DNA from: an uncultured Terracidiphilus sp.
Lineage (GTDB): Bacteria > Acidobacteriota > Terriglobia > Terriglobales > Acidobacteriaceae
Direction: 5' to 3'
Assembly (NCBI GenBank): GCA_964560845.1
Contig: CAZLMY010000007.1
Location: 6,815 to 70,814, forward strand
DNA: 64,000 nucleotides
Shown: piece by piece, positions 28,577-57,701 of the stretch
Numbering within the stretch: the first letter of the stretch is position 1
Layout: the number at the start of each line of letters is the position of its first letter
Program-made: the position numbers and the translations under genes
The notes under the pieces: generated by a model
The model's input: the letters and a program-made list of their open reading frames with translations, nothing else
Told to the model about the DNA's origin: nothing
The model's database searches: none

Positions 28577-28595
28577 CTCCATCTCGCACGCACAA

Positions 28596-30138: not shown

Positions 30139-30307
30139 CTCCGCGTTCCTTTCGAGTCCTATTTGCTTTTTGTCGCAGCAGCCAAAACAGAGGTATTCAC
30201 TGTTTTTCTCTTCATAGCGTATGGAACGAACCGGCAGCAGAACGGTGCGCCGGCTCGTTCATCCCGTCACCGCGGAGCTTGATCCCAAGCCGCGGTGCGA
30301 AGGTTGT

Positions 30308-30685: not shown

Positions 30686-30746
30686 ATTCTCTCCTTTGTT
30701 CTGTGTCGGTATTCGGGCGAACCGATAGCCCTGCCTTCACCCTATA

Positions 30747-30773
30747 GTCGAACGGCCTGGCCTGAATTCGACA
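30747..30773 (-). promoter_or_regulatory. Candidate ECF42-type promoter upstream of the YCII gene
   Basis: Minus strand reads TGTCGA-attcaggccaggccgtt(17 nt)-CGAC, about 60 nt upstream of ATG 30685. As I recall it, the published ECF42 target motif is TGTCGA (-35) and CGA/TC (-10). Confidence 0.45.
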
Positions 30774-30836
30774 CATCCACCAAAGAATTCTGCTTCTTTT
30801 GCGTTTTGCTCGAGGCGACCGGAGGTGACCGCTCCA

Positions 30837-31676: not shown

Positions 31677-31761
31677 CTTCGAGGTCTCCGTTCTTATTCA
31701 TAACCGATCGCTAACTGATCGCACGAGTTGCCGAGGGCCAGGTTCGCGCCGTGAGATTCTC

Positions 31762-33009: not shown

Positions 33010-33279
33010 GCACGTCAAGCTAACAAACGAACGCACGCGACACAACTGCATCCGATCGCAGCTTATCCACCGTTCAGGAAAGGCCAATGCGCCGATGAAG
33101 GACCGTCTGTGCCGGCACACCAGCACAGGCCCTGGCAACGCCTAGCAGAGCCACTCAGCCCCGTTGCTCCCCTCAACGAAAGAATTCTGCGGCAATGTGA
33201 TCGAGTCCGGCACAATTCGTCGCTTACGGAGATGAAGGCCGAGTTCAGATCAACTGAAACGCGCCGTTGAGGAGAGGTC

Positions 33280-37865: not shown

Positions 37866-37964
37866 GTTCCCTCCAGTATTCGCTTGATGGCTTTGCGGCA
37901 AGATTGGATGCGGTTCTGGAAGCGAGGTGAATGGAATGGGTTCCTTTGGAACTGGCTGCACGAG

Positions 37965-38558
37965 TTATGCTTCGGTTGCGGATCCTCCGGATTTCAATTC
38001 GCGTTGCAGCCAGGCGCGCGCCATCTTCCATTCTCGTCCGATGGTGGCGGTGGATATGTTGAGGATGACGGCAGACTCCTCGGTCGTGAGTCCGCCAAAG
38101 CAAATCAGATCCACCAACTGGGCCTTGCGTTCATCCACCTGCTTCAGCTTATCCAGCGCTTCCTGCACGGCCAGCATGTCCATCGAGTCTGCGTCGGAGA
38201 TGCGATGGAAGTCGTCGAGCGTCACCCGCTGCAGCATTGCTCCGCCGCGCTTGTCGCGGCTGCGTGCCCGGGCATGGTCCACCAGTACACGGCGCATCTC
38301 AGTGGATGCCATAGCGATGAAGTGGGCGCGGTCATGGAGACAGAGATCGCCTCCCATCAATCGCAGATAGGCTTCATGCACAAGGCCTGTAGGAGAGAGG
38401 GTGTGGTCGGGGCGTTCCTTGCGCATGTAGGCCGAAGCGAGACGGCGCAGATTGGCATAGACCAGGGCGGCAAGCTCTTCGCCAGCCTGCGGGTCGCCAT
38501 CGCGCCAGCGAACCAGAAGCGCCTTGGTGGCCGAATCGGGGTTTGGTGCTTCCTTCAT
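37965..38558 (-). CDS. ECF sigma factor (TIGR02999-like; kinase-associated, ECF43-like context)
   Basis: From ATG 38558: MKEAPNPDSATKALLVRWRDGDPQAGEELAALVYANLRRLA...HEAYLRL (region 2) and LTTEESAVILNISTATIGREWKMARAWL (region 4). Confidence 0.88.
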   Translation of the reverse strand: MKEAPNPDSATKALLVRWRDGDPQAGEELAALVYANLRRLASAYMRKERPDHTLSPTGLVHEAYLRLMGGDLCLHDRAHFIAMASTEMRRVLVDHARARSRDKRGGAMLQRVTLDDFHRISDADSMDMLAVQEALDKLKQVDERKAQLVDLICFGGLTTEESAVILNISTATIGREWKMARAWLQRELKSGGSATEA

Positions 38559-39082
38559 CGCGTGCAGGATAGCACCTGAAGCAGTCCTGCGGAAGAGCCG
38601 ATCGCGGAGGATTCGATGTCGCCACTGCCGACGTCTTCCAGAATCGTCGCTCCAGACTTTCTGGCTCAGCAATTGCAGGTGCCGCACAAGGCTCATCGTA
38701 ACTCCGAGCGGAAAACCGACGGCCAGGAGTTACGAAGACCAACTGCGTCCCGCGCACGCTTGAGGACGTCGCCGGCATTCCTGCGTCGTCCACTCAATAC
38801 TCTCAATTTCCGTTTGCGACGTCATTGTTCACGACGAACATTAACTTCCGTGGAGTAAAATTGCGTATTCAATGCCGAACTCTTGTAAGTGGGATTCGTT
38901 TTGTGCCCGGCGATGCCTACGCGATCGCACACACTTGTACGGAAATCGGGCGCGTCTCGGAACCGGGGGCTGCTTTGCCGCGCCTTCGATTGCGATTCCC
39001 GCAGTCCTCGAGGCAAGAGAACAGCCGACAGGAGCTGTAAGATTCCAAGAAGTCTGGATGAATCGGAAGGGACTCAAGCCCA

Positions 39083-42349: not shown

Positions 42350-43186
42350 CTAAGCCTTCCACTGGTAGAAAACGCCGCGCAGGTATCGCTTGGGCTCCAG
42401 TTCCGGACAGATTCCGGAGATCGATTCAGTTGAGCCGACGATGAGGGCGCCATCTCGTGCCAGACACCTGGTCAGATTCCGAAACAACCTGATCTTGTCA
42501 GGCTCGGTAAAGTAGATAGCCACGTTGCGGCAAAGAATCACGTCGAAAGGGTTTGGAAAGGAGAACGGCTCCAGAAGGTTCATCGTCCGGAAGGAAGCAA
42601 GGGAGCGAATCTCGTCCCGAACCCTCCATCGCTCTCCGGAAGCCTTGAAATGCCGGGTGAGCATTTCCTGGGACATGCCGCGTTCCAGTTCCATGCGGGT
42701 GTATTCGCCATAACTCGCCTGGGCCACGACCTTGTTGGAGATGTCGGTTCCCAGGATGCGAATGTCATAGCGAGTTAGATCGCCGAGCAGTTCCTTGAGC
42801 ACCATGGCAATGCTGTAGGCCTCCTGCCCGGTAGAACAAGCGGCGCTCCAGATGCGGATCGGGATCCGTGTACCGTAACCATTGCGGCGGTCTACCAGTT
42901 CGGGAACGAGCTTGTGGCGAAGCAGGTCAAAGGGAGCCGCATCGCGAAAGAAGGAGGTTTCATTGGTGGTGATGGCTTCAATGACCCGTGCGCGAAGTTT
43001 TGAGGTCGAGTCGGCCCGCACTTTATAGAACAATTCAGCGAAGCTGGTTACGCCAACGTCGGATAGCAGGGCGGCCAAGCGCGTCTCGACAAGATAGCGC
43101 TTGGAATCGTCCAAGCTGATTCCGCAGATCTCCTGGATATAGCGGGACCATGCCGGCATTTCTTCGCGCGTGATGGCAACAGTCAT
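42350..43186 (-). CDS. cheR: Chemotaxis protein methyltransferase CheR
   Basis: TNETSFFRD and IRIWSAACSTGQEAYS. 4-nt overlap with cheB. Confidence 0.92.
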   Translation of the reverse strand: MTVAITREEMPAWSRYIQEICGISLDDSKRYLVETRLAALLSDVGVTSFAELFYKVRADSTSKLRARVIEAITTNETSFFRDAAPFDLLRHKLVPELVDRRNGYGTRIPIRIWSAACSTGQEAYSIAMVLKELLGDLTRYDIRILGTDISNKVVAQASYGEYTRMELERGMSQEMLTRHFKASGERWRVRDEIRSLASFRTMNLLEPFSFPNPFDVILCRNVAIYFTEPDKIRLFRNLTRCLARDGALIVGSTESISGICPELEPKRYLRGVFYQWKA

Positions 43187-44310
43187 CCTCGATATCCCTT
43201 GACAATGGCGGAGATCCGGCCGGCAATGGATTCCAGCGGCAGGACGACATCGACAACGCCGGCGTCGAGCGCGGCTTTGGGCATGCCATAAACGACACAG
43301 CTCGGCTCATCCTGGGCAATCACATAGCATCCGTGGCGCTTGAGGAGCCGCAAGCCGAGGGTTCCGTCGCTGCCCATTCCCGTAAGAATCACGGCCATGG
43401 CGCGGCCGGGAAACCTGCTGGCAGCGGAGCGAAACAGGTAGTCGACGGAGGGCCGGCAGTTGTTTTCCGGAGGGTCGTCGGTAATTTCGATGACCGGCTG
43501 CATCTCCGAGCCTGTGCCAAGCCGCATCTGCCGTCCGCCGGGCGCGATGTAGACCGTGTTCGGCTCGGGATGATCGCCATGCGCCGCTTCTTTGACACGG
43601 AGCGAGCATTTGCCGGCCAGCCTTTCGGCCAGCGATATGGTGAAGATAGGCGGCATGTGTTGCACGATCAGGATGGGGACGCCAATATCCTTCGGGATGG
43701 TGGGGAGAATCTCGGCCAGAGCATTGGGTCCGCCGGTCGAGACGCCGATGAGGACCATTTCCGGCTTGGCAGGATTGGAAATGCGCTGCATCCGTCTGCC
43801 GATGTCGTTGATGGATGGGCTTTCAGGCAAAGGTTCCGGCCGAAAAGCGGGTTTGGGAAGGGGCGGGCGGGGGGAATTGGAACCGCCGCGCAGAATAGCG
43901 CGGACTTCGAGGCGATGGGCCAGGGCGCGAATGCGGGGAGTCAGTTCCCGCAGCATTTGCTCCCGCGCTTGTTCCGGAGATGCGGAATCGGGTTTGGTGA
44001 TGAAGTCAAAAGCCCCCTTTTCAAGGGCGCGCATGGTGAGTTCGCCGCCGCGATGGGACAGGGCGCTGACGACGATGACCTCGACCTTGGGTGCTCCGCT
44101 GCGCAGCAGGGCATCAAGGACCGCCAGGCCATCCATCTCCGGCATCTCGATGTCGAGAGTGAGAATGTCGGGCTTCAGTTCCCTGACCTTCTCCAAGGCA
44201 AGCTTGCCGTTGCTCGCACTGCCCACGACCTCGACTCCCGGAAGAGAGGCAAGCACATCCGCAAGCACCCTCCGGAAGAGGACCGCATCGTCGACAACCA
44301 GGACTCGCAC
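43183..44310 (-). CDS. cheB: Chemotaxis response regulator protein-glutamate methylesterase CheB
   Basis: REC: RVLVVDDAVLFRR...DILTLDIEMPEMDG. Esterase: IGVSTGGPNAL, QHMPPIFT, GMGSDG. Confidence 0.93.
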   Translation of the reverse strand: MRVLVVDDAVLFRRVLADVLASLPGVEVVGSASNGKLALEKVRELKPDILTLDIEMPEMDGLAVLDALLRSGAPKVEVIVVSALSHRGGELTMRALEKGAFDFITKPDSASPEQAREQMLRELTPRIRALAHRLEVRAILRGGSNSPRPPLPKPAFRPEPLPESPSINDIGRRMQRISNPAKPEMVLIGVSTGGPNALAEILPTIPKDIGVPILIVQHMPPIFTISLAERLAGKCSLRVKEAAHGDHPEPNTVYIAPGGRQMRLGTGSEMQPVIEITDDPPENNCRPSVDYLFRSAASRFPGRAMAVILTGMGSDGTLGLRLLKRHGCYVIAQDEPSCVVYGMPKAALDAGVVDVVLPLESIAGRISAIVKGYRG

Positions 44311-44312
44311 GT

Positions 44313-44813
44313 CTAGCCTTTCTTCTCGTCGTTCGAGAGCGGGTTTGGCAACAGGTCATCGACACCAAGCACCGCGGCCAGATCAAGCAGAGCCACGAGG
44401 CGCTGACCGCTGTGAAACACACCGCGCAGTTTCTGCATCTGCACGCCATTGAGGTTCGGGGGAGGATGGTCCAGCCCGCCCGGCGGGACCACAACCGCGT
44501 CGGCTACGCTGTCAACAAGCAACCCGACAGGCTCGCCTTTCCAGTCTGCGATCAGGATGCGGCTCTCCGGGCCAATTTTGACGGAGCCCAGTTCCAGACG
44601 CACGCATAAATCGATCAAAGTAATGATCCGGCCTCGCAAATTGCGGATGCCTGCCACAAAATCCGGAGCATGCCGTACAGGCGTGATCTCGCCCACCATG
44701 ATCACTTCCTGGATCAGGGTGGCATCGATTGCGAAAAGGCCATCGGCTCCGAGATAGAAGGTCGCGGTCAGCAGATCCTCATCGGTTTCAGGATCGGAAA
44801 TTATTGTTGCCAT
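44313..44813 (-). CDS. cheW: Chemotaxis coupling protein CheW
   Basis: CheW-like fold, ...FAIDATLIQEVI...IRNLRGRIITLIDL...VGLLVDSV. ATG 44813 with GAGGAAG SD, 10 nt after the MCP stop. Confidence 0.9.
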   Translation of the reverse strand: MATIISDPETDEDLLTATFYLGADGLFAIDATLIQEVIMVGEITPVRHAPDFVAGIRNLRGRIITLIDLCVRLELGSVKIGPESRILIADWKGEPVGLLVDSVADAVVVPPGGLDHPPPNLNGVQMQKLRGVFHSGQRLVALLDLAAVLGVDDLLPNPLSNDEKKG

Positions 44814-44823
44814 GTCCACTTCC

Positions 44824-45687
44824 TCAGACTCTGAATTTGGCCACTTGGGCGCCAAGTTGTTCCGCCAGTTTGGATAGTTCGGCGGCACTGCTCTGCACCT
44901 GTTCGCCGCCCTCCTGGATGCCGGACACGGCCAGGTTCACATTCGCAATGTCCGCGGCAATGCTCTTCGACACTTGCGCGGTTTGAGAGACGTGTTCATT
45001 GGCATCGCGCACGCCTTCCGAAGCACGGGCTATATTGCCGGCCACATCCCTCGTGACTGTAGCCTGCTCTTCAATGGCCGCCGCGATGCTGGCCACAATT
45101 CCGCCCACGTCGCGGATGACCGTGGCAATTTGAGCCATATCGCCGACCGCCATGCCGGTGGAGCTCTGAATGCCGGCAATGCGCGCCTTGATGTCCAATG
45201 TGGCTTCGGCAGTCTGCTTGGCGAGTTCCTTGATCTCGTTTGCGACGACCGCGAAGCCCTTGCCGGCGCTGCCCGCGCGGGCGGCTTCGATGGTAGCATT
45301 CAACGCAAGCAGGTTGGTCTGCGCCGAAATGTTGGTGATGGTCTCGGTGACCAACCCGATCTCCTGAGCCGCCTGACCCAGCTTTTGCATCTGTTCCGCG
45401 ATGGTCCGCGCCTGCGTTGTCGCGTCCTCGCTGATGATGCGCGCCCGCGCAGTATTGGCGGAGATGTCGCCCACCGTGGCGCTCATCTCTTCCGTGGCGC
45501 TGGCCACCGAAGCCAGGCTGTTGGAGGATTGCTCCATGCCTGCGACGATCGAGAAGACATTGGTGCTGGCCTCTTCGGCTGCCGCGGCCACGGTATGAGT
45601 CCGGTCGGAGACAGTGGCTGTTCCGTATGCCGTCTGCTTGGAAATGGCCGAGAGCTCCGTTGCGGAACTGGCCAAGGTCTGCACGCC
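44824..45687. repeat. Paralogous MCP signalling-domain segment (copy 1 of tandem duplication)
   Basis: The last 287 codons align without gaps to 46625-47488. Long identical peptide runs, and roughly 80% nucleotide identity by eye in the compared stretches. Confidence 0.8.
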
Positions 45688-46542
45688 GGCCGAGATATCG
45701 CTTAGCAAGTTGCGCAGGCTGTTCTTCATGCTGTTCAGGGCGGTAGTCGCTTCGCCAATCTCGTCGGTAGATTCCACCACCAGATCCGCTGCCGAGAGGT
45801 CGCTGTTGGCAATCCGATTGGCAAAGTCAACGGACTTCCTAAGAGGCCGGATCACCAGTTTGCGAATCAGCAGGTAGACCGATCCGCCGGAAGCCAGAAG
45901 CGTGAGAAAACTCAGCAGGAAGATTGCCACTGAATTGGAAAAAGAGGTTGCCACAAGCTGGTCGGTGGACGCAGTTACGGCGAAGGCGCCTCGCAAATCG
46001 CCGACTTTCATGCCTTCCTTGGCATACCCAAATGGGCCTTTTTCGCCCACGGGATCGCCATGGCACACCAGGCAATCCTGGGTAATGCGAACCGGCCGCG
46101 CATAGCGCATGACTTCTTTTCCGTCCGCCGATTGGCGTTCGGAGAATTCCTTCAGCGCAGGATCCGCTTGAAACATTTCCAGGGCGTGGCGCTCAAATGC
46201 GTCCGGCTGGTTCTTGGGATTGCGCGGAGTGAGGGAAGGCGTATGGAAAGTCATCTGATTCTTGTTCGCATACTCCTCGGCAACACTCCAGGCCGCAACC
46301 ACCGGCACCTGGCTGAGGGACCTGAATTTGCCATCGGGCACAAGAGTGGGCAGATTCCCGGAGAACCAGAGCTGTGTCTCGGTCGCCATACCGGTTATTT
46401 GGCGGATCTTGTCGCGGAAAGCTTCTTCCGCCTGCTGGTTGATCCGCCGCTGGGTGACCCAGAAGCTGATCAACGAACTGGTGGTGAGAACAAGGACGAT
46501 TGTTCCCACGATTTTTCCCGAAAGCTTGGCGTTCTTGAACAT
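44824..46542 (-). CDS. Methyl-accepting chemotaxis protein with periplasmic c-type-heme (CxxCH) Tll0287/DUF3365-like sensor
   Basis: TM1 (res 11-29). Periplasmic region carries CLVCH (codons at 46060-46074) within ...[23 protein letters not shown]...GDLRGAF. TM2, HAMP-like region and signalling-domain tip [32 protein letters not shown]. Confidence 0.9.
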
Positions 46543-46624
46543 GCGAACTCTCGTTTCTTTGGCCGGAAGTGGACATCAAAGGGACTCTCAGAAAAGGGCC
46601 CCTCGCATCAAATCTTGACTCGCA

Positions 46625-47488
46625 TCACATCTTGAACTGCGCTACCTGGGAACCGAGCCTTTCAGCCAGCACAGACAGTTCGGTGGCGCTGCTTTGTACC
46701 TGTTCGCCGCCGCGACGCATCTCGGTGACCGTCATGGTAAGGCCGGAGATATCGTGCGCAATGCCCTGGGAAACCGTCGCCGTCTGCGAAACATGTTCAT
46801 TGGCCTCGCGGACTCCGATGGAAGCCTGCGCGATGTTGCCCGCCACATCCTTGGTGACCGTGGCTTGCTCTTCGATGGCCGCCGCGATGCTGGCGACAAT
46901 CCCGCCCACATCCCGGATCACGTTTGTGATTTGCCCGATATCGCTGATTGCGGTGCCCGTCGAGCTCTGGATTCCCGCGATGCGCGCCTTGATATCCAGG
47001 GTGGCATCGGCGGTCTGCTTCGCCAGTTCCTTGATCTCGTTGGCAACCACGGCAAAACCCTTGCCTGCACTGCCCGCGCGCGCCGCTTCAATGGTCGCGT
47101 TCAAAGCCAGCAAATTGGTTTGGGCAGAGATGTTGGTAATGGTCTCGGTTACGTTTCCGATCTCCTGTGCGGCCTGACCCAGTTTCTGCATCTGGTCCGC
47201 GATGGTGAGGGCCTGAGAGGTGGCCTGCTCGCTGATGGCCCGAGCGCGCGAGGTGTTTGAGGAGATGTCGCCGACCGTGACGCTCATCTCTTCGGTGGCG
47301 CTGGCAACGGAAGAGAGGCTGCTGGAGGACTGCTCCATGCCCGAGGCAATCGACATGGTTGCGGCACTGGCCTCTTCGGCTGCGGCAGCCACCGCATCGG
47401 CTTGCTGGGCCATTGTGGCCGCACCGGAGGCCGTCTGCTTGGAGATTGCGGTGAGCTCGGTGGCGGAGGATGCCAGGGTGTGAACGCC
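46625..47488. repeat. Paralogous MCP signalling-domain segment (copy 2 of tandem duplication)
   Basis: See 44824-45687. Confidence 0.8.
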
Positions 47489-48322
47489 CTCGGCGATACC
47501 TCCTACGAGCTTGCGCAGGTTGTCGTTCATGGTCTTGGTCGTGTTGGCCAGCTCGCCCAACTCGTCTTTTCTGGCCAGCAGCGCTTCGGGCAAATTCACA
47601 TTGGTCAGGTTTCCCTCGGAGATCACCTTCAAACGCGCCACAACCAGGGCCAAGGGATCGAGAACCCTGTGACTGAAGATAAAACCGACTCCCAGGCTCG
47701 CCCCGATTGCCAGCAGGCATGCCAACGCGATAATCCATTCGGTCCTGACCTGGCTTTCGATTTCATGGTCAACATCGGCATCGATCAGCTCGGTAAGACT
47801 CGCCGTGAGCGCATCGGAGAGATCGCGAACCTGAGCTCCGTGCGGCTCGACCGTCGCCACCAGTTCCTCGTCTACGGACGCGATGCGCTTGGCTCCGCCG
47901 CTCATGGCTTCTTGAGCGATGGCTACCTGCTCTTGATGAAGCAGGGGCAGTTCAGTGGCGATCTTTGCCACCCGATCCTTGTTTTCCTGCAAGACGAATT
48001 TCCTGCTGCCTTCCGGCAAAGGGGCGAACGCGGTGTTGATTTCGGTCCAGTCTTCTTCGACCTTCTGCTTGTAAGCGGCGGCCTTGTCCATCTTTCCGTC
48101 TGAGACGAAGAGAAGAACGCGCCGGAGGTCGGATCTGGCCTTCATCAACTTCAAGTCAATTTGAGAAGACATCAGGAGGGTAGGGATCCTGGTGTCCTTC
48201 ATCCTGCCAAGCTGCTGGCGGACATCGATCGCCATGGTAATTACCAGAGCTGATGCGGCGATTACCACGATGAGAAGGGCAGCCAAGGCGTAAACCTTTT
48301 GAGTGCTCATCTTCTGATTCAT
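46625..48322 (-). CDS. Methyl-accepting chemotaxis protein with four-helix-bundle-type periplasmic sensor and HAMP
   Basis: AAGGAGAG SD. TM1, helical periplasmic region of about 170 aa, TM2, HAMP (...DELGELANTTKTMNDNLRKLV), and the same signalling tip as its neighbour. Confidence 0.9.
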   Translation of the reverse strand: MNQKMSTQKVYALAALLIVVIAASALVITMAIDVRQQLGRMKDTRIPTLLMSSQIDLKLMKARSDLRRVLLFVSDGKMDKAAAYKQKVEEDWTEINTAFAPLPEGSRKFVLQENKDRVAKIATELPLLHQEQVAIAQEAMSGGAKRIASVDEELVATVEPHGAQVRDLSDALTASLTELIDADVDHEIESQVRTEWIIALACLLAIGASLGVGFIFSHRVLDPLALVVARLKVISEGNLTNVNLPEALLARKDELGELANTTKTMNDNLRKLVGGIAEGVHTLASSATELTAISKQTASGAATMAQQADAVAAAAEEASAATMSIASGMEQSSSSLSSVASATEEMSVTVGDISSNTSRARAISEQATSQALTIADQMQKLGQAAQEIGNVTETITNISAQTNLLALNATIEAARAGSAGKGFAVVANEIKELAKQTADATLDIKARIAGIQSSTGTAISDIGQITNVIRDVGGIVASIAAAIEEQATVTKDVAGNIAQASIGVREANEHVSQTATVSQGIAHDISGLTMTVTEMRRGGEQVQSSATELSVLAERLGSQVAQFKM

Positions 48323-48396
48323 TGCAATTCTCTCCTTGATTACCTGTGCTGGTTCGCCGCCAAGCTGTCCGCCGGGTGCGACAAAAGTTCAATGTT

Positions 48397-51300
48397 CTAG
48401 TTGACTTGCGGGGTTGGGATGGAGGCCGGAGGGCCTGCTCGCCAAAACTCCCGCAGTCGACTCAAGAGCCGGTCCCGGTCGAGCTTCGTTTGATAGTCGT
48501 CAATGCCCGCGGCGCTGCCTCGGGCGATATCGTCTTCGCCGGCCAGGCTGGTGAGGGCAATGATGGGCAGCCGCGCCGTGAGGGCGTCGCCGCGAATGCG
48601 CCGCGCCAATCCCAAGCCATCCAGCCGCGGCATTTCGATGTCGGTGACCACGGCACGGACGCGCTCATGATTTTGCTGAAGGATCTCCCAGGCGGCTTCG
48701 CCGTCGGGTGCTCCCAGCACCAGGTAGCCGTCTTCCTCAAGGAAACGAGTCACCTGGGAGCGGAAGAAGTCGGAGTCCTCCACCAGCAGAATCGTGTTTT
48801 CCTGTTTGCCGTGGGAACTTGGTTGCGCAATGGCTTGCTGGACAGCCCATTCCGGCCAGGTTGCGTCCACCAGTTCGTAGAGATCGACGATCAGCGCGGT
48901 GCGGCCGTGAATGATGGTGGAACCGGCCACGCCCTTTTGGCTGTGCGTCGTTTGATCGATCTTGGCGCCCGTTTCAACAACATCCACAGGCATGGTTCCC
49001 AGCAAACCCACCTCATGGCCGCGAATGTTGGCAATCATGACCGCAAGTTCAGTCTCGTCGCCAATGGGGTCGACCTGTGCCGTGTCCGACAGCGTGACCA
49101 ACGGCAGGGAGCCGCCGTGGTATTGCATTGTGCGTCGTCCGGCTATTGTCTCCACCTGCTTGGCCGCGATCTGCTCGATGCGCGTCACAGTATCCAGCGG
49201 AACGGCGCAAAGCACATCCGGCGGATTGCGGAACAAAATCAACTGCTGGCTGTCGGCTGTTTGTTCGCGAGCCGCGCTCTCTGCCCGTTCCCGGGCGCTT
49301 GCGGCGCGGGTAACCGCGTCCAGTTTGGCCTTGGCGGCGAGACCTGCAACGTCGAGGATGAGAGCCACGGAGCCGTCGCCCAGGATGGTGGCCCCGGCAT
49401 ACTCTTCCATTCCCTTCAGGTGTGAACCGAGAGGTTTGACGACAATTTCTTCGGTGTCGTGAAAGCTGCCCACCACCAACCCGTAGGTTTGCGTGCCGGT
49501 GTTCACCACTACGATTTCCAGGGTGCCGCCGCTATGGCGCCTATCGCGGCCGGTGCGGACATAAGGCACGGTGGCGGACGTCGGAGGTGCTGGTGGTTCG
49601 CCCTCCAGAGGGATGCGCGGCGAGCGCCTGTCTGCCAGCCGGGTGCGGCGGTCTACCTCGCGACGTCCGCCACGCTCATCGACATAGGTTGGGACAACTC
49701 CCAGCACGTCGGCAAAGCGCACCAGCGGGATGAGCTGATCGCGCAAGAGCAGAACTTCAGCATCTCCCACGATCTCAATGCGGGTCTTGGCCGCGCCGGG
49801 AAGAACGTGCCGCAACTCCTGCACGTTGGTCTGCGGAATGGCGAAGCACTCGCCTTCGACGGAGACGATCAGGGAGGGAATAATGGCCAGTGTCAGCGGC
49901 AATTTGATGCGAAAGGTTGTGCCCTTGCCGACCACCGAGAGGATTTCGACTTTGCCGCCGAGACGATCGAGGTTGGTCTTGACCACGTCCATGCCCACGC
50001 CGCGTCCGGAGACGTCGTTGGCCTGCTTGGTGGTGGAAAGTCCGGGCAGAAAGATCAACGCGGCCTTGTCTTTATCCGACATGCCCTTGAGCTTGTCCGC
50101 GGTGATCAGCTGTTTTTCAAGAGCCGCCTTGGCGACGCGCTCCGGGTCGATTCCCCGGCCGTCGTCGACGATTTCCACCACAACCTGCCCGGCTTCGTGC
50201 CGTGCTTCGATGGTGATCGAGGCCTGGCGCGGCTTGCCGGCGCGAACCCGGTCTTCGGGCATTTCCACGCCATGGTCGACGGCGTTGCGCACCATATGGG
50301 TAAGGGGATCGGACAGGGATTCGATCAGGGTCCTGTCCATGGCGACTTCCTTGCCTCGGATGTCGAGCTGAATATCCTTGTGCAGAGCGGCGGCCAGATC
50401 GCGCACCAGGCGGGGAAACTTGCCGAAGACGTTGCCGATGGGCTGAAGGCGGGTCTGCATGACCACATCCTGCAACTCGCAGGTGATCTGATTGATTCGC
50501 TGGAATGCGGCCTTGAGGGCACGCGGGTTCTGTTGCGCGAGCGTAGAGCGCAACTGATTGCGGCCCAGCACCAGCTCGCCGGCCAGATTCATCAACATTT
50601 CCAGGGTTCCCACGCTGACCCGGATGCTGTCTTCGACTACAGCGGCGCTTGCAGGCGCAGGTTGGTTGGCAGCCGGCTTTGCGGCAGCAGGACCAGGCGC
50701 GGCCGAAACCGGCAGATTGGTTGGCAACACCCGGCTGGGCTGAATTTCGGCAGCCAGAGACAGGGCCACCTGGGGCGGAATCTGTGCAGGCGTTGGCAGA
50801 GCTAACGCCGGCCGTGCGACTGGTTCGAAGAGTGAGGCGGCAGACGCGGAGAGCAGCTTGACTCTGTCTCGATTATGGGGGAACAAGGGGCCAATATCGT
50901 CCGGCTTGATCGCCGTGGCCAGGATAAACCGCACCGGCAGTTGCGTTCCCAGAGGACCGTCGAGCGTTCCGACCGCGTCGAAGTTCACTTCGCAATCGAG
51001 AATCTCTCCGGACTCCATCAACTTGCGGAAGACATCCAGCACATTCTGGCCGCGCCGTTCGATATCGTGGATCAGGTCGTACTCCACGGAGTACAAATAC
51101 CGGCCGGACTCCTTCGACTGGTCGTAATCGAACCTGGAAAGGACCGCGGGTAACCCTCCGCCCTCCGGTGTGACCGCGATGGTTTGAGTCAGCGAGGCCT
51201 TTCGCTCCTGCGGCAAATAGGACGAGGTCAAGCCAGTCAGGCTCAACACCAGGTCGTCGATATCGGCGTCGGCGCTTTCGGCGGGGTGGTTGATCATCTC

Positions 51301-51606
51301 CCGCAACTGGTCGAAGGCCGTCAGCAGCAGGTTGGTGATCTCGGCGTTCGGGACCATTTTCTTCGACCGCACCATGTCCAGCACGGTCTCGGCCTTGTGA
51401 GACAGGTCCTTGACCTTGGTCAGGCCGAAGTATCCGCTGGCGCCCTTGATGGAATGGGCGGCGCGGAATACCTTATTCACCAACTCCAAATCAATGTCCG
51501 CCCCACCCTCTTCGATGGCCAGCAAGTCGGCCTCAATCGTGGTCAGATGCTCCCGCGATTCATTGATGAATTCACCGAGTAATTCGTCGTCCAGATCCCC
51601 ATCCAT
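48397..51606 (-). CDS. cheA: Hybrid chemotaxis histidine kinase CheA: Hpt - dimerisation - HATPase - CheW-like x2 - receiver
   Basis: Hpt: FRAAHSIKGASGYFG. Dimerisation: SIRVSVGTLEMLMNLAGELVLGRNQL. HATPase: HMVRNAVDHGVE, DDGRGID, GRGVGMDVV. Two CheW-like segments (CFAIPQTNVQEL...GATILGDGSVALILDV and LCAVPLDTVTRIEQ...GRTALIVDLYELV). C-terminal REC: ILLVEDSDFFR...VVTDIEMPRLDG. AGGAGA SD. Confidence 0.93.
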   Translation of the reverse strand: MDGDLDDELLGEFINESREHLTTIEADLLAIEEGGADIDLELVNKVFRAAHSIKGASGYFGLTKVKDLSHKAETVLDMVRSKKMVPNAEITNLLLTAFDQLREMINHPAESADADIDDLVLSLTGLTSSYLPQERKASLTQTIAVTPEGGGLPAVLSRFDYDQSKESGRYLYSVEYDLIHDIERRGQNVLDVFRKLMESGEILDCEVNFDAVGTLDGPLGTQLPVRFILATAIKPDDIGPLFPHNRDRVKLLSASAASLFEPVARPALALPTPAQIPPQVALSLAAEIQPSRVLPTNLPVSAAPGPAAAKPAANQPAPASAAVVEDSIRVSVGTLEMLMNLAGELVLGRNQLRSTLAQQNPRALKAAFQRINQITCELQDVVMQTRLQPIGNVFGKFPRLVRDLAAALHKDIQLDIRGKEVAMDRTLIESLSDPLTHMVRNAVDHGVEMPEDRVRAGKPRQASITIEARHEAGQVVVEIVDDGRGIDPERVAKAALEKQLITADKLKGMSDKDKAALIFLPGLSTTKQANDVSGRGVGMDVVKTNLDRLGGKVEILSVVGKGTTFRIKLPLTLAIIPSLIVSVEGECFAIPQTNVQELRHVLPGAAKTRIEIVGDAEVLLLRDQLIPLVRFADVLGVVPTYVDERGGRREVDRRTRLADRRSPRIPLEGEPPAPPTSATVPYVRTGRDRRHSGGTLEIVVVNTGTQTYGLVVGSFHDTEEIVVKPLGSHLKGMEEYAGATILGDGSVALILDVAGLAAKAKLDAVTRAASARERAESAAREQTADSQQLILFRNPPDVLCAVPLDTVTRIEQIAAKQVETIAGRRTMQYHGGSLPLVTLSDTAQVDPIGDETELAVMIANIRGHEVGLLGTMPVDVVETGAKIDQTTHSQKGVAGSTIIHGRTALIVDLYELVDATWPEWAVQQAIAQPSSHGKQENTILLVEDSDFFRSQVTRFLEEDGYLVLGAPDGEAAWEILQQNHERVRAVVTDIEMPRLDGLGLARRIRGDALTARLPIIALTSLAGEDDIARGSAAGIDDYQTKLDRDRLLSRLREFWRAGPPASIPTPQVN

Positions 51607-51616
51607 GCTGGTTCTC

Positions 51617-51934
51617 CTATTCCCAACTTCCGCTCACATTGAGGCGCCCCGTCAGCCGCATGCTTTGCAACAGGCGGTAGATGTCGGGGCAGACGTTGGT
51701 CACGCGAAGGCTTCCGCCGCAGCGCGCCAGGCTATTGGCGGCTGCAATCAGCAGACCCATGCCGCTTGAGTCCAGCATTTTGGCGCCTGCCAGGTCGAAC
51801 GCCAGTTCGCGCACGCCCTTGTTCAACATGTCTTTGAGGCTTGTCTGCAACTCCGGAATCAAGACCGCGGTCAGATCGCCCGTGAACTTTACGGAACCTT
51901 TCTGGTCGCTGAGTTCTATAACGTATGGCGCCAT
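51617..51934 (-). CDS. STAS-domain anti-sigma-factor antagonist (SpoIIAA/RsbV-like)
   Basis: 105 aa. ...AFDLAGAKMLDSSGMGLLIAA... carries the phosphorylatable DSSG motif. 10 nt upstream of cheA. Confidence 0.88.
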   Translation of the reverse strand: MAPYVIELSDQKGSVKFTGDLTAVLIPELQTSLKDMLNKGVRELAFDLAGAKMLDSSGMGLLIAAANSLARCGGSLRVTNVCPDIYRLLQSMRLTGRLNVSGSWE

Positions 51935-51938
51935 TTTT

Positions 51939-52367
51939 TCAGTTTTCCTTTCCTGCTTGTTCTTTCTTGCTTATCCAGAGTGTGATCTGGTTGCCGCGGC
52001 GATTGAAGCGCACGCGGTCGGCATAGAGGGTGTAGAGGTGCAACCCGCGGCCCGAAGTCGAGGTCAAATCCAATCCTCTTGGTCGGGCCTTGTGCCAGTT
52101 AAAGCCAGTGCCCTGATCGCAGACCTGCAAGCGAATCCACTCCCGTCCCACCCAAAGCCGCAAGGTGACCAGCTTGGCCGGATCGCTTTCATTTCCGTGA
52201 AGAATGGCGTTGTTGAGGCTCTCCCGCATCAACAACTCCACGGCAAAGCAGACAGGACAGAGGTCTTTCTTTTGGAGCAGCGCCCGAATCTGGCCGCAGA
52301 GGGTCTCCACTTCTGCCAATTGCGAAGGGATGACTTGCGAAAAAGTGGGGCTGTCTGCCCGGCTCAT
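51939..52367 (-). CDS. Anti-sigma regulatory factor Ser/Thr kinase (RsbW/SpoIIAB-like, HATPase_c_2)
   Basis: From ATG 52367: ...ESLNNAILHGN (N-box), VCDQGTGF (G1), SGRGLHL (G2). Its ATG overlaps the upstream stop as ATGA (52364-52367). Confidence 0.8.
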   Translation of the reverse strand: MSRADSPTFSQVIPSQLAEVETLCGQIRALLQKKDLCPVCFAVELLMRESLNNAILHGNESDPAKLVTLRLWVGREWIRLQVCDQGTGFNWHKARPRGLDLTSTSGRGLHLYTLYADRVRFNRRGNQITLWISKKEQAGKEN

Positions 52368-53596
52368 CGTTCCACCCCCATAAACAGCGTGTCGTCGGCG
52401 GGAGACAAACCGGCCATGAGTTCGTCGACCACAGCGGGGACCACGTCCCCGAGGGGCGCGCATCGCCGCGCATAACATGCATTGGCCAGGCGCACGAGGC
52501 CTTCCTCGAACGATCCGCCGGTTTCAATCAACCCGTCGGTATAGAAGAAAATGCGGTCGCCCCGCTGCAGGGTCATTTCGGTGACGCCGAAGACTGCGTC
52601 GGGAAATGCCCCGACTACGTCGCCTTCCTGTCGCAGAATCAGCGGTTTGTCCCCATTGTTCGCGACCACGATGGCGGGGGGATGGCCGGCATTCACCAGA
52701 GATAGCTGACCGGTTCTATGGTTGAGCCGGGCATAGATGAGAGTGAAGAACGCGCCCGACGGAAGAATGCGGCACAGCGAGCTATTGATGGCGCGCACGA
52801 TCTCCGGGGCCAGGTGCAAGGGGCCGGCATACTCGTTGGCGAGGGCTTTCAGCGAGGCGGTCCAAAGCGAGGCGGCCAGGTCGTGGCCGCTGGCATCCGC
52901 AATCAGGTAGTCCACGATGCCCTGCCCGGAAGAGAACACGTCGTAGAAGTCTCCGCCGGCGGCAAGCACCTGACGAATCGAAACCTGAAAGGAAGCTTCC
53001 GGCAAGTCTTCAGGGCGGGGCATGAGGCTTTGCTGGGCGCTGGCCAGCAACTGCACCCTCTCCACCTGGAGTTCGGCAAGCCGCTCGTAGGCTCTCTTGA
53101 GCCGCAGATGGGTGCGAACGCGGGCAATCACCTCTGCACCTACGATGGGCTTGGTGATGTAGTCGACCCCGCCGATTTCAAAGCCCTGGACCTTGGTGGC
53201 AATATCGTCGTTGGCGGAGATGAAGAGAATCGGGGTGGTAAAGGCTGTGGATTCCGCATTCAAGGTGCAGCTAACGTCGAAGCCGGACCCATCCGGCAAA
53301 TTGACGTCAAGAAGAATCAGGTCGGGACGCAAGGTTCGGATTCCTTGAACGGCTCCGGAAACGTCCCCTGCGCTAGCGGTGCGAAATCCGGCCCTCTTGA
53401 GGAGGCCTTCAATTGTGCGCACGATGCTGAAATCGTCATCGACGACGAAAACCAAAGGGGAAAGCTCTCGTTCCTCGACGAGTATTCTGGCGTTCTCCAG
53501 TGGAATGACCGGTTCTTTGCGGGGACCCAAGACTCTCAGCCCTTCCTTGCATTCTTGTCGCTTTGCTTCATTTATCGGCAGTTTTGACGTTTTCAT
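52364..53596 (-). CDS. Response-regulator receiver fused to PP2C (SpoIIE/RsbU-type) phosphatase
   Basis: REC: LVFVVDDDFSIVR...DLILLDVNLPDGSG...KP. PP2C: GGDFYDVF, ADASGHDLAAS, FFYTDGLIE, DDTLFMGVER. Confidence 0.9.
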   Translation of the reverse strand: MKTSKLPINEAKRQECKEGLRVLGPRKEPVIPLENARILVEERELSPLVFVVDDDFSIVRTIEGLLKRAGFRTASAGDVSGAVQGIRTLRPDLILLDVNLPDGSGFDVSCTLNAESTAFTTPILFISANDDIATKVQGFEIGGVDYITKPIVGAEVIARVRTHLRLKRAYERLAELQVERVQLLASAQQSLMPRPEDLPEASFQVSIRQVLAAGGDFYDVFSSGQGIVDYLIADASGHDLAASLWTASLKALANEYAGPLHLAPEIVRAINSSLCRILPSGAFFTLIYARLNHRTGQLSLVNAGHPPAIVVANNGDKPLILRQEGDVVGAFPDAVFGVTEMTLQRGDRIFFYTDGLIETGGSFEEGLVRLANACYARRCAPLGDVVPAVVDELMAGLSPADDTLFMGVER

Positions 53597-53597
53597 T

Positions 53598-53629
53598 CGA
53601 AGAAAATCAAGGAGGCAAACCCGGCCTCC
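53598..53629 (-). terminator. Weak hairpin/attenuator candidate between the Hpt gene and the REC-PP2C gene
   Basis: Minus strand reads GGAGGC-cgggttt-GCCTCC followed by TTGATTTTCTT. Only a 6-bp stem. Confidence 0.3.
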
Positions 53630-53690
53630 GATTCAACGAAGGCGATCGCCGACCACCCTGCATCTGAAACGCTGCAAGTGCTTGGGGCGT

Positions 53691-55097
53691 TCAGCTACTG
53701 GCTTGAGTGAGGTGCTCTGTCATTGCATCTTCGAGTTGAAAGAACGCGAATTGCAACGCATCCACTTGACCGGCAACCGATTCGAGATCGCCCGCTATCC
53801 CAGCCTTTTCGATTCTGTGGGCGAGGGCCCTCAGCGCTTCGCCGCCGATGTTCGCCGCGGCTCCCTTGATCAAGTGCGCCTTGCCTCCCGCGCCCTGCGG
53901 ATCACCGCTTTCGGCCAGAGTGCGCAACGCCTCGATCTGGCGGGGCATGGCGTCAAGGAAATCGCGCATCACGAGTTGAATCAGCTCTTCGTCATTCATC
54001 AGACGACTCGCCATCCCAGCCCGATCGAAGACAATTGGCAAGCCCGGTAGCGGCAAAGCGGGAGGCGCGCCCTCGGTGAGGAGCGGTGGGGTTTCAGTTG
54101 TCGGTGAGGTCTCGGCAGCTGGACCCGGCATCCAACGCGAGAGCACCTCTGCCAACACCTTCGAATACACCGGTTTAGAGACATAATCGTTCATCCCCGC
54201 CTCGATGCACTCCAGCCGATCGCTCTGCTGGCAATGAGCGGTCATCGCAATGATGGGGATGTGTGGATTCATGGTCGGGAAAGCCGAACTGCGGATCTGG
54301 CGGGTAGCTTCGAGGCCATCCATCTGCGGCATCTGCACGTCCATCAGCACCAGGTCATAGGCGTGGGAAGCCAGCGCCTGGAGTGCCTCGATTCCGTTCT
54401 CTGCGATATCCGCAGTGAGGCCAAGCATGCCGAGGATGCCCAGAGCCACCTGCTGGTTGGTGGAATTGTCCTCAGCAAGCAGGATTCGTGCCTCGATACC
54501 CGCGAAGATTTTTTGGGATGGGGCGGAAGAATGGGCCGCTGTGCTGTTCAGAGAGTTGACCTTGGCTGGGGACAAATCAGGGATGGCGCGGGAGCGTTGC
54601 CGACCAACAAGTGGCTTGTTTCCATCACCGGACAACAACTCCTCTTCGCGGTTCCCGCCAACGATGGAAGCATTGAGATTCGCGAAACCGATCTCGGCTT
54701 CGGAGGATTTCACGATTGGTTGGTGTTCGAGCACATTCTGGATGATCGCGATGTAGCCGTCGACCGCCCCCTCGCCACTCCGAATGGGCGAAATCTCAAT
54801 CTCAGCAGTGTAAAGCGACCCGTCCTTGCGCCGATTGATCGCTTCGTCGTGCCAAGCTTCTCCGGCTCGAATCCTCTCCCAGATCTGTGTGTAAAACGCC
54901 TGCGAATGCCTTCCGGGACTGAGAACTCGATGGGTCTGCCCCACCAGCTCCTGGCTGGCGTATCCAGTCATTGTGGTGAAAGCCGGGTTCACGAACTGAA
55001 TGATTCCGTCCAGGTCGGCGATGACGACAGCGACGTCCACGCGCTCGACAGCCTTGAACATGCCAGAGCAGACCAGCCCTTGGTTGGTGTTGAACAC
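53691..55097 (-). CDS. PAS - receiver - Hpt phosphorelay protein (no HisKA/HATPase core)
   Basis: GTG 55097 preceded by AGGGAGG at 6 nt. PAS: VVIADLDGIIQFVNPAFTTMTGYASQELVGQ...RKDGSLY. REC: ILLAEDNSTNQQV...DLVLMDVQMPQMDG. Hpt: GKAHLIKGAAANIGGEAL. Confidence 0.85.
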   Translation of the reverse strand: MFNTNQGLVCSGMFKAVERVDVAVVIADLDGIIQFVNPAFTTMTGYASQELVGQTHRVLSPGRHSQAFYTQIWERIRAGEAWHDEAINRRKDGSLYTAEIEISPIRSGEGAVDGYIAIIQNVLEHQPIVKSSEAEIGFANLNASIVGGNREEELLSGDGNKPLVGRQRSRAIPDLSPAKVNSLNSTAAHSSAPSQKIFAGIEARILLAEDNSTNQQVALGILGMLGLTADIAENGIEALQALASHAYDLVLMDVQMPQMDGLEATRQIRSSAFPTMNPHIPIIAMTAHCQQSDRLECIEAGMNDYVSKPVYSKVLAEVLSRWMPGPAAETSPTTETPPLLTEGAPPALPLPGLPIVFDRAGMASRLMNDEELIQLVMRDFLDAMPRQIEALRTLAESGDPQGAGGKAHLIKGAAANIGGEALRALAHRIEKAGIAGDLESVAGQVDALQFAFFQLEDAMTEHLTQASS

Positions 55098-56108: not shown

Positions 56109-57701
56109 TTACGAAGGACTAATCGCAGTTGCGGGGGCGGAGGACTCTTCCCCACTTGCCTTCCTTCTTTGAGCAAGACGGCGCCTGTGTCGATCCACGG
56201 CAGCACTGGCCTCGACCAGGAGCGCGAGCAGGGGGACGAGCCAAACAACCCTGGCCTGATAGCGCGCTTCGTTGGCCGAAATCCCCCCGCAAATCGCGGC
56301 ATTCAGGACTATCCCGGCAAATGCCCAAAGGAAGACTCTCTTGAGCAGCGGACTTATGGTTCTACCAGGAAGAACTGCGAGCCAGACCAAGAGCAGATAG
56401 AGGAAGGAAATCGACACACAAAAGTATGGAAGAGCCTTCAAGATTACGGAAGGCATGGTTCCCTGGTAGGCGGCAGTGGAGCGAATCTGGGCAAGAACCT
56501 CGAGCGGAAAGGTCCGGTCCATGTTGTCTTTTTCGCCTGGATTGTACTGAAAGTCCGCGAGGCTGAAGTTCAGGAATTGTGCTGCCGCGTTGCGCAGACC
56601 CGACCTTGCGACGCCGAGCGGATCGTAGCGCAGAACCGCGAGAAAAAAGCGGAACTGCTCCGCGCTCAGAGCACGGCGTTGGTCGTACGTAGCCATTTCA
56701 TAGACTGACTTGCCGGGCTCCGTGCCAAAGAGAAAAGTGTAAGAAGACATGGGAAACTCACTACGGTAGGCACAGAGAGTGAAGTTGCTTTGCGGACAAG
56801 TGGCGCGCAGATAGTTTGTGCCCGGTCCGTCGTCAACCAATCGGGCCGCGATCAAGGGAAAGCGCAAGGGCGCCGCGCCAGTGGCGCGAGTAATTCCGTA
56901 GGTTACGAGAGACTGGCCGCCGTAGGCGGTGACAGCAGCAAGCAGGATGACGCAAAGCCCTCGCCGATTGGCAAAGGTACGCCGCAACAGGTTGGCAGCC
57001 ACGGCTATGCCAATCAGCATGACCGCAAGCAGGACGCAGGTATCATGCGCCAGGAGTGCGAACGCCAGAAGCAGGTACCAGAGAACGTTCTCGAGGCGCC
57101 CAAGGCGATGCTCCGCGGAGATCAGAATCGCGCAGGCGAGAACGGTCAACCCGGCAAAGATGTCGGGCATCAGATAACTGGCGAAAAACGAAACGTCCGA
57201 CAGCACGCATAATCCTGCGCAAATCCAGGGCAAAGCGGGCCAAACCGGCATTTCGAGAGCGCGAACCGACAGGTAGAGGGCAAGAAAGACGGCAGCGGCC
57301 TGGACCAGGATTGTCAGCCAGAACCCGCCGCTCACCGCGCCCAGATAAAGCAGGAGCCCCCAATAGAGCGATCTGCCCAGCATGATGCCCTTCTTCTTGA
57401 TGTCTTCCAGGCTCCGCGTATGCGCTGCGCCGATATTGTGCAGGCTTCGCTCGGCTGCTTCGGAGCTCGAACTGCCTGCGGCGGCAGGGGCGTCGCTGTC
57501 TGCGGCGGTCCATGCGGTTCGCAGATGCGTGAATTTGTTGATGGCCGCATCTTCGCTACGCATATAGGTTCTTGTATCGATGTAATAGAAAGGGCCGCGG
57601 TTCCAGATGGAAGGCCACAAAAGCAGGACAATCAATCCGGCCAGCACAAGCGGCCGAAGCAAGGAAGCATGAATACGCAACTGGATTCTCCCAAAACGCA
57701 T
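56109..57701 (-). CDS. Large polytopic membrane protein of unknown function (possibly GT-C-like)
   Basis: 530 aa with at least 10 hydrophobic helices, a soluble loop of about 120 aa (res 330-450) and a basic C-terminal tail. No family motif recognised with certainty. Confidence 0.6.
   Translation of the reverse strand: MRFGRIQLRIHASLLRPLVLAGLIVLLLWPSIWNRGPFYYIDTRTYMRSEDAAINKFTHLRTAWTAADSDAPAAAGSSSSEAAERSLHNIGAAHTRSLEDIKKKGIMLGRSLYWGLLLYLGAVSGGFWLTILVQAAAVFLALYLSVRALEMPVWPALPWICAGLCVLSDVSFFASYLMPDIFAGLTVLACAILISAEHRLGRLENVLWYLLLAFALLAHDTCVLLAVMLIGIAVAANLLRRTFANRRGLCVILLAAVTAYGGQSLVTYGITRATGAAPLRFPLIAARLVDDGPGTNYLRATCPQSNFTLCAYRSEFPMSSYTFLFGTEPGKSVYEMATYDQRRALSAEQFRFFLAVLRYDPLGVARSGLRNAAAQFLNFSLADFQYNPGEKDNMDRTFPLEVLAQIRSTAAYQGTMPSVILKALPYFCVSISFLYLLLVWLAVLPGRTISPLLKRVFLWAFAGIVLNAAICGGISANEARYQARVVWLVPLLALLVEASAAVDRHRRRLAQRRKASGEESSAPATAISPS

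Follow-up and report, generated by a model that had tools for sequence, protein, structure and literature searches.

Chemosensory systems with alternative cellular functions (ACF) are those in which a multidomain response regulator replaces CheY, and ACF-type che clusters with REC-Ser/Thr-phosphatase regulators have already been catalogued (PMC3447774). In Gammaproteobacteria, ancestral F7 clusters carry one or more anti-sigma antagonists and a serine phosphatase (PMC7184735), Shewanella che1 contains CrsR/CrsA, for which control of RpoS has been proposed (PMC9855816), and che2 of Vibrio vulnificus encodes RsbU/RsbV (PMC10107281). A split REC-PP2C system has been characterised in Bacillus cereus (RsbK/RsbM/RsbY with separate RsbV/RsbW; PMC4574943), and in Pseudomonas aeruginosa several hybrid kinases converge on one Hpt protein, with outputs that need not be a classical cognate sigma factor (PMC5085249, PMC6482189). 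Here we analyze a ten-gene cluster of an uncultured Terracidiphilus sp. (Acidobacteriota), located at 42350-55097 of a 64-kb stretch of DNA (the window, to which all coordinates refer), which joins a chemosensory module to a partner switch comprising a REC-PP2C phosphatase, an RsbW-like kinase and a STAS protein. We consider it probable, at moderate confidence and judging from sequence, that the cluster constitutes a non-motility, ACF-like chemosensory pathway with the partner switch as its output. Open-access papers and preprints yielded no report on this cluster family or on any acidobacterial example, and no experimentally characterised ACF pathway with a PP2C/partner-switch output was found in the searchable open-access literature.

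Gene content and sequence features

The cluster consists of ten open reading frames (ORFs), all on the minus strand. They are given below in the order of transcription, together with one hairpin candidate; domain calls are from Pfam unless stated otherwise.

53691..55097 (-), PAS-REC-Hpt phosphorelay protein, 468 aa, GTG start; PAS 16-121, REC 205-318, Hpt 377-459
53611..53629 (-), terminator-like hairpin and T-rich tract; 6-bp stem with 5 G-C pairs, tail TTGATTTTCT
52364..53596 (-), REC-PP2C (SpoIIE-family) response-regulator phosphatase, the proposed output regulator; REC 49-160, SpoIIE 231-408
51939..52367 (-), RsbW/SpoIIAB-like serine kinase, 142 aa; HATPase_c_2, E 3.5e-18
51617..51934 (-), STAS anti-sigma-antagonist-like protein, 105 aa, predicted substrate of the kinase and the phosphatase; STAS, STAS_2
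48397..51606 (-), hybrid CheA, 1069 aa; P1/Hpt, P3, P4, P5, extra CheW domain, REC
46625..48322 (-), methyl-accepting chemotaxis protein 1 (MCP1), transmembrane, with a helical (4HB-type) periplasmic domain; HAMP (21.5 bits, cut-off 25), MCPsignal
44824..46542 (-), MCP2, transmembrane, with a periplasmic Tll0287-like (sCache_heme) heme-c domain; Tll0287-like E 5e-31, HAMP, MCPsignal
44313..44813 (-), CheW coupling protein, 166 aa; CheW, E 1e-24
43183..44310 (-), CheB methylesterase with N-terminal REC; REC 3-107, CheB_methylest 186-366; NCBIfam CheB subfamily, 396 bits against a cut-off of 293
42350..43186 (-), CheR methyltransferase without TPR extension; CheR_N and CheR, E 3e-54

Each junction was read in the sequence. 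The PAS-REC-Hpt gene (stop at 53691) is separated by 94 nt from the longest REC-PP2C ORF, which runs from 53596; the REC-PP2C stop overlaps the kinase start (52367) as ATGA; and spacings of 4, 10, 74 and 82 nt follow between kinase and STAS, STAS and cheA, cheA and MCP1, and MCP1 and MCP2, respectively. MCP2 and cheW are 10 nt apart with the true cheW start at 44813, which matches the JGI gene call, cheW and cheB are 2 nt apart, and cheB and cheR share a 4-nt overlap. Spacing in the cluster is tight, with two 4-nt overlaps among the junctions. The true start of REC-PP2C probably lies downstream of 53596: the protein has 371 aa in most orthologues compared with 410 aa for the maximal ORF here, and the NCBI copy of 388 aa would start at TTG 53530, leaving a gap of 160 nt to PAS-REC-Hpt. 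A second JGI metagenome sample gave independent calls of these genes, and the cluster is real and intact in a soil acidobacterium. A preliminary description of this DNA had given ten minus-strand genes with these domains and junctions, and the ORF list, the sequence reading and Pfam agree with it in every case. All domains of the ten proteins scored above curated cut-offs except HAMP of MCP1, and the earlier STAS, HATPase_c_2 and SpoIIE assignments were upheld by these profile searches.

The partner-switch trio carries the residues expected of an RsbU/RsbV/RsbW-type device, i.e. the metal-binding Asp residues of the PP2C domain, the N, G1 and G2 boxes of a GHKL kinase and the STAS phospho-Ser. 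Across 15 orthologues, D97, S127 and K149 of the REC-PP2C receiver are invariant and D53/D54 nearly so, and in the same set the PP2C residues D216, D219, D234, G237, H238, D354, G355, D401 and D402 are invariant. The kinase aligns to SpoIIAB (N-box ESLNNAILHG, G1 DQGTGF, G2 SGRGL), and the STAS protein aligns to SpoIIAA with Ser56, in a DSSG motif, at the phospho-serine position; this serine is invariant in 11 loci. The kinase boxes and the STAS motif are also kept in loci of other phyla. A partner-switch module with intact and conserved catalytic and phospho-acceptor residues lies beside the che genes.

In several relatives the RsbW-like kinase and STAS are fused in frame as one protein of 233-261 aa (junction e.g. 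...GKDDGTMAAYVIE), namely at L083:11170-11871, L084:11113-11871, L087:11182-11922, L088:11134-11889, L011:11155-11934 and L014:5683-6468 (compare window 51617-52367; L-numbers denote the related loci compared). The two are separate genes in the window, L086 and L085, and the fusion occurs in ~8/62 homologue clusters. A kinase fused to its own substrate or antagonist is unusual. A match to PDB 3ke6 (Mycobacterium tuberculosis Rv1364c) was obtained as well. Rv1364c combines phosphatase, kinase and STAS domains in one polypeptide and offers a precedent for these fusions; to our knowledge it has neither a REC domain nor linkage to che genes.

The Che core is complete, with MCP, CheA, CheW, CheB and CheR all above Pfam cut-offs. 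In CheA, Pfam assigned Hpt, H-kinase_dim, HATPase_c and REC. Scanning the protein in pieces resolved a P5/CheW domain that an insertion divides (E 4e-22) and, separate from it, a second CheW-like domain (E 1e-9), and recognised no P2 domain. The insertion, ~60 residues rich in Arg and Pro (RGGRREVDRRTRLADRRSPRIP...; window 49450-49630, residues about 660-720), interrupts P5, so that the Pfam CheW match falls into two stretches. The Hpt histidine motifs read in the translations are AHSIKG in CheA-P1 and HLIKG in PAS-REC-Hpt.

Both receptors are predicted transmembrane proteins, and their signalling domains are 78% identical. Orthologues of MCP1 match 4HB_MCP_1. MCP2 carries a CLVCH heme-c motif at residue 157, within the Tll0287-like domain between two hydrophobic segments, and the CxxCH motif is kept in orthologous receptors. 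Tll0287/DUF3365 has been redefined as a heme-c Cache domain (sCache_heme) which, fused to signalling modules, was reported to have the properties of a nitric oxide (NO) sensor and not of an O2 sensor (bioRxiv 10.64898/2026.02.01.703092). By analogy, the periplasmic domain of MCP2 probably binds NO or reports redox state, making MCP2 the candidate receptor for such signals. The second receptor has a Cache_3-Cache_2 domain instead in some relatives or is absent, so that the core stays the same and the input differs between loci. In both MCPs, 147 aa separate the hairpin tip from the C-terminus, equal to 21 heptads (counted from the arm length, HMMER alignment to PDB having left gap placement ambiguous). 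This suggests class 42H as the simplest reading, with 40H plus a tail as the alternative; by this count, both receptors clearly exceed in length the 36H Aer2 receptors found in F7 systems.

A gene for a hybrid-cluster protein (Prismane/Hcp) lies at 16630-18273 (-), 24 kb from the cluster. An Hcp gene is also found ~9.5 kb upstream of the cluster in L087 (1-686), beside a Crp-type regulator. The occurrence of Hcp near a putative NO-sensing receptor may be more than coincidence.

Class membership and recurrence across phyla

The Wsp kinase WspE, like the CheA of this cluster, is a hybrid CheA ending in a REC domain, and its output is a non-motility one, as proposed here. Wsp and other ACF systems also share with the cluster a multidomain response regulator in place of CheY; the output of Wsp is a REC-GGDEF cyclase, whereas here it would be REC-PP2C. 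The absence of a stand-alone CheY, previously described for the cluster, holds for the whole 64-kb window: tblastn with the four receivers found no CheY or further REC, and all four REC domains lie inside the cluster. CheZ, CheC, CheX, CheD and CheV were likewise missing from the Pfam calls in the window, and NCBIfam gave only generic CheA/CheB/MCP matches with no class label. Judged from these features only, the cluster appears ACF-like.

Che1/F7 systems (Shewanella Che1 and the ancestral F7 stage 1/2 clusters of Vibrio and Pseudomonas), too, combine in a che cluster a REC-serine-phosphatase and one or more STAS antagonists with a heme-based receptor, a second MCP and CheB/CheR, and they have a non-motility role. 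Yet in Che1/F7 systems CheY and CheD are present, CheA is not a hybrid, the heme receptor is Aer2, a cytoplasmic 36H PAS-heme protein, and CrsR fuses phosphatase and kinase. The present cluster lacks CheY/CheD, its CheA is hybrid with an extra CheW domain and REC, its kinase is separate (or STAS-fused in relatives) and its gene order differs; both of its receptors span the membrane and have arms of 21 heptads, and the heme-c Cache domain of MCP2 is periplasmic. Assignment to F7 stage 1/2 (Shewanella Che1 type) was rejected on these grounds.

The switch itself has the same split layout as that of B. cereus, where a methylation-controlled (RsbM) hybrid kinase phosphorylates REC-PP2C, and this phosphatase dephosphorylates STAS against the action of RsbW, all three being separate proteins. 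The sensor there, however, is a single hybrid histidine kinase with no MCP/CheW/CheA array and no CheB, and the target SigB is encoded in the locus, whereas no sigma gene lies in this cluster. HptB-HsbR-HsbA of P. aeruginosa resembles the cluster in the sequence Hpt, REC-PP2C, STAS antagonist (PMC5085249, PMC6482189). It differs in that phosphatase and kinase domains are joined in one polypeptide, HsbR, that the Hpt protein HptB stands alone and that che genes are lacking; here phosphatase and kinase are separate ORFs joined by the ATGA overlap, and an Hpt candidate donor is present. Precedents had earlier been placed only in Gammaproteobacteria, with phosphatase and kinase fused, a view contradicted by the RsbK/RsbY split system (PMC4574943) and the ACF catalogue (PMC3447774); the split layout and the general idea are both known already.

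What ties the switch to the che genes is recurrence. At least 80 loci with REC-PP2C relatives came from a pattern scan that covered one genome for each GTDB species; their neighbours were typed by tblastn and blastp with domain-level window queries, and the closest relatives were recovered by exact-protein look-ups. Among the listed loci with at least 37% identity, the core order REC-PP2C, RsbW, STAS and CheA, usually followed by MCP, CheW, CheB and CheR, was found in L009 (Acidobacteriia), L010 (Bryobacter), L011 (Solidesulfovibrio magneticus), L013 (Desulfobulbus), L015 (Desulfobulbaceae) and two metagenome-assembled genomes (MAGs) labelled "Proteobacteria" (L014, L020). It reaches the contig end in L019 (Phycisphaerales) and L003, and is rearranged in L017 (Lentisphaerae) and L006 (Victivallales). 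Six close acidobacterial relatives (L083-L088) have the same nine-gene core according to Pfam labels on exact-protein look-ups. Thus, besides Acidobacteriota, the core is complete or cut by a contig end in MAGs of Desulfobacterota, Lentisphaerota and Planctomycetota. None of the listed loci at 34% identity or less (L021-L037) has an RsbW, STAS or CheA-P1 neighbour, so the association of che and partner-switch genes is specific to this REC-PP2C clade. Close homologues are numerous in soil and peat metagenomes (phosphatase 66-88%, kinase 43-72% identity), the named ones being Terracidiphilus MAGs.

The CheA proteins linked to the switch are 40-47% identical to the window CheA over the full ~1050 residues across phyla, including the extra CheW domain and REC. 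By comparison, a paralogous non-hybrid CheA of L088 is only 30% identical, with CheB at 39%, CheR at 31% and CheW at 35%. On this sequence evidence, the linked CheAs are a distinct orthologous family travelling with the partner switch, and a functional tie between the trio and the che genes is well supported because the same gene order recurs across phyla. The paralogues of L088 belong to a second che cluster, CheD-containing and with the non-hybrid CheA, directly upstream of the partner-switch-linked cluster (L088:1-7208), an arrangement that would suit a role of the latter as an extra system for non-motility functions. The neighbourhood comparison that had been recommended for the cluster hence found che and partner-switch genes syntenic in related genomes of several phyla, and the architecture is not peculiar to this genome but belongs to a conserved family present in at least four phyla.

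Candidate phosphoryl donors and the proposed pathway

One gene of the ten does not share this conservation. PAS-REC-Hpt was not found at its position in any other related locus examined (L083, L084, L085, L087 and L088 among them), and the closest relative, L086 (88% identity), has there, upstream of its che-linked cluster, a 787-aa PAS-HisKA-HATPase-REC-Hpt kinase instead. The C-terminus of this kinase shares 60% identity with residues 149-461 of PAS-REC-Hpt, a stretch that takes in REC and Hpt; the PAS domains of the two proteins are unrelated, and PAS-REC-Hpt lacks the HisKA/HATPase core. These alignments are best explained if PAS-REC-Hpt is a reshuffled relative of the hybrid kinases linked to the operon that has no kinase part. 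Its PAS domain matches NifL PAS1 (TIGR02938, E 7e-24, below the model cut-off), which hints at a flavin/redox sensor. Homologue searching with the REC-Hpt half confined the 468-aa architecture to this population; as a guide to relatives this search was set aside, since it returned generic hybrid-kinase C-termini, mostly fragments.

The hairpin in the 94-nt gap may, weakly, point to separate transcription of PAS-REC-Hpt. As a terminator it was rejected: it is a pattern match only, and the fold of the gap is no more stable than shuffles (z-score = -0.94). Region-wide, 12 terminator-like sites were found against 14.3 expected, which is not above chance. The comparison of loci points to PAS-REC-Hpt as an accessory, lineage-specific component. 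The preliminary description had counted it as a member of the unit; its absence from that position elsewhere and the weak hairpin in the gap speak against this. With other Hpt-bearing genes present instead, conservation therefore covers a unit of nine genes, accompanied by an Hpt-bearing partner that differs between loci.

Such partners recur. The gene at L085 that overlaps the cheR stop encodes dCache-HAMP-HisKA-HATPase-REC-Hpt, L013 has a 1704-aa PASx5-HisKA-HATPase-REC-Hpt protein upstream, and multi-PAS genes of 1462-2001 aa, whose C-terminal make-up is unsettled, overlap the cheR stop in L084, L087 and L088. Among the listed same-clade loci without a CheA core, 3/5 have an Hpt donor beside the switch. 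In L007, a Terriglobia MAG, a stand-alone 216-aa protein follows the trio (11848-12498), apparently a remnant or a minimal donor, with an Hpt domain that shares 59% identity with CheA-P1. The genes beside the switch encode a PAS hybrid kinase-REC, an Hpt and a REC-GGDEF protein in L012, and a MASE6 hybrid kinase-REC-REC-Hpt in L016. The common denominator of the REC-PP2C clade thus appears to be an Hpt-type donor, of which CheA-P1 is one form. This provides the best computational support for phosphotransfer from Hpt/P1 to REC-PP2C, and it also means that CheA may not be the sole donor.

From the gene content, residues, synteny and CheA family observed here, we infer a pathway whose phosphotransfer steps, signs of regulation, ligand and target are all conditional. 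The two membrane receptors (one 4HB-type, one with the periplasmic heme-c Cache domain) would form an array with CheW and hybrid CheA, CheR and CheB would provide methylation-based adaptation, and receptor signals would set CheA autophosphorylation. Phosphoryl groups would pass from CheA P1 (Hpt) to the receiver of REC-PP2C, altering the activity of the PP2C domain on phospho-Ser56 of STAS, while the RsbW-like kinase would oppose it by re-phosphorylation. Unphosphorylated STAS would then bind the kinase and alter the action of either protein on a further partner. The C-terminal REC of CheA and PAS-REC-Hpt may form a side branch that drains phosphate from the REC-PP2C receiver or feeds it, a part that a full hybrid histidine kinase with Hpt would take in relatives. 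In this way the phosphatase would integrate periplasmic inputs with cytoplasmic ones, possibly from a flavin/redox PAS domain. REC-PP2C had been named the only plausible output, a claim that goes too far: other routes are conceivable through the REC of CheA itself and through the Hpt relay.

Several observations weigh against the array-to-switch pathway. The loci of the scan are a sample, not a census. L005 and L008, of the same clade, have neither CheA nor an obvious Hpt within the DNA examined, and no conserved target gene (sigma factor, cyclase or other) was found beside the cluster in the loci compared. The sole direct test on record, a two-hybrid assay in V. vulnificus concerning another Che class, detected no interaction between CheA2 and RsbU (PMC10107281). 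Finally, the donor to REC-PP2C may be a linked Hpt and not P1, given the REC that CheA itself carries and the repeated linkage of a REC-Hpt protein or hybrid kinase.

We regard it as unlikely, though less so than the other alternatives, that an Hpt relay (PAS-REC-Hpt or hybrid kinases, in the manner of HptB and HsbR) drives the switch, that STAS/kinase modulates the array (e.g. CheA or the receptors) and that Che output runs via CheA-REC to a regulator elsewhere. This alternative agrees with the Hpt-bearing hybrid kinase or REC-Hpt linked in L085, L086, L013 and the window, with the multi-PAS genes at cheR in L084, L087 and L088 as far as their unsettled C-termini allow, with the same-clade modules of L012 and L016, which have hybrid kinases and no CheA, and with the negative V. 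vulnificus assay; a link from STAS to chemoreceptors has also been proposed for Campylobacterota (PMC9239204). Against it, P1 of CheA is itself an Hpt domain, L007 has a P1-like Hpt alone after the switch, and no separate Hpt or hybrid kinase lies within the DNA examined at the che-linked L009, L010 and L020. The position of STAS directly upstream of cheA in nearly all loci fits both this alternative and the array-to-switch pathway, and does not favour feedback onto the array.

We consider it improbable that the REC-PP2C receiver is a phosphate sink tuning CheA/CheB, with output running via CheA-REC and PAS-REC-Hpt to an unlinked regulator and with STAS/kinase an unrelated stress circuit under a shared promoter. 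Four receivers do compete for one kinase, the REC-Hpt module is a classical relay and no target of the switch can be identified in cis; but conservation extends to the REC-PP2C/RsbW/STAS trio and not to PAS-REC-Hpt, the PP2C domain keeps its catalytic residues without variation, and the kinase-STAS fusions in relatives argue that the trio is one device. Chance adjacency of an independent che operon and an independent partner-switch operon, for which the 74-, 82- and 94-nt gaps could hold internal promoters, is very hard to credit given the same order across at least four phyla, the clade-specific CheA family and the STAS-cheA gap of only 10 nt.

Genomic surroundings and implications

The target of the partner switch could be encoded elsewhere. 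No group-3 sigma gene occurs in the cluster or window, where the only sigma genes are two of extracytoplasmic function (ECF) type at 31762-33138 and 37965-38696. The latter (Sigma70_ECF), 3.65 kb beyond cheR, is the sigma gene nearest to the cluster; the gene directly downstream of it encodes a Ser/Thr kinase of 944 aa that includes a long TPR region (35127-38696, minus strand, for the pair), and the two appear to be a module of their own. The earlier statement that no sigma gene lies in or next to the cluster holds for the unit itself, with this ECF gene as a minor correction for its vicinity. No flagellar or pilus genes were among the Pfam calls across the window, as had been described.

Two groups of neighbours were considered as targets and rejected. 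Secreted proteins of ~700 aa upstream of the cluster are conserved only in three close relatives (L083, L084, L088) and absent from the window, and the neighbours in distant loci are unrelated (transglutaminase/ATP-grasp genes, an outer-membrane protein, a cation efflux protein). At 56109-57701 (-), 1 kb upstream of the cluster, the window has a 530-aa ORF with an N-terminal hydrophobic segment and no Pfam match, which is not homologous to these secreted proteins. Elsewhere in the window lie genes for glycoside hydrolases, an outer-membrane barrel protein, GyrB, the hybrid-cluster protein and similar functions. A stretch of lower GC content (0.53) at 28283-33138 contains small genes, two YCII-like and one RibD_C-type reductase-like (by eye, from translations only), that adjoin the ECF-type sigma gene at 31762-33138, whose product has a DUF6596 C-terminal domain. 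Rfam and tRNA scans of the window found nothing.

Tentatively, and with more doubt than for the pathway itself, the loci compared may represent a distinct cross-phylum chemosensory class (Acidobacteriota, Desulfobacterota, Lentisphaerota, Planctomycetota). Its output would be a sigma-independent partner switch, its inputs would be periplasmic NO/redox signals (heme-c Cache) and cytoplasmic PAS/hybrid-kinase signals brought in via competing Hpt donors, and its target would be of a new type, neither sigma factor nor motor.

Current ideas are not overturned by this cluster, as phosphatase-type regulators already figure among the ACF outputs known from comparative genomics; it would not greatly surprise a specialist, and it is well suited to experiments. 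Soils are rich in acidobacteria, and hardly any work has addressed how these bacteria signal. The cluster offers a concrete, complete and conserved pathway with a likely NO/redox receptor, an adaptation system and a phospho-serine read-out (Ser56 of STAS). If CheA-P1 does phosphorylate REC-PP2C, partner switching would be a general output of chemosensory arrays beyond Gammaproteobacteria, and the RsbW-like kinase and STAS would give a handle on what such arrays control in non-model phyla.

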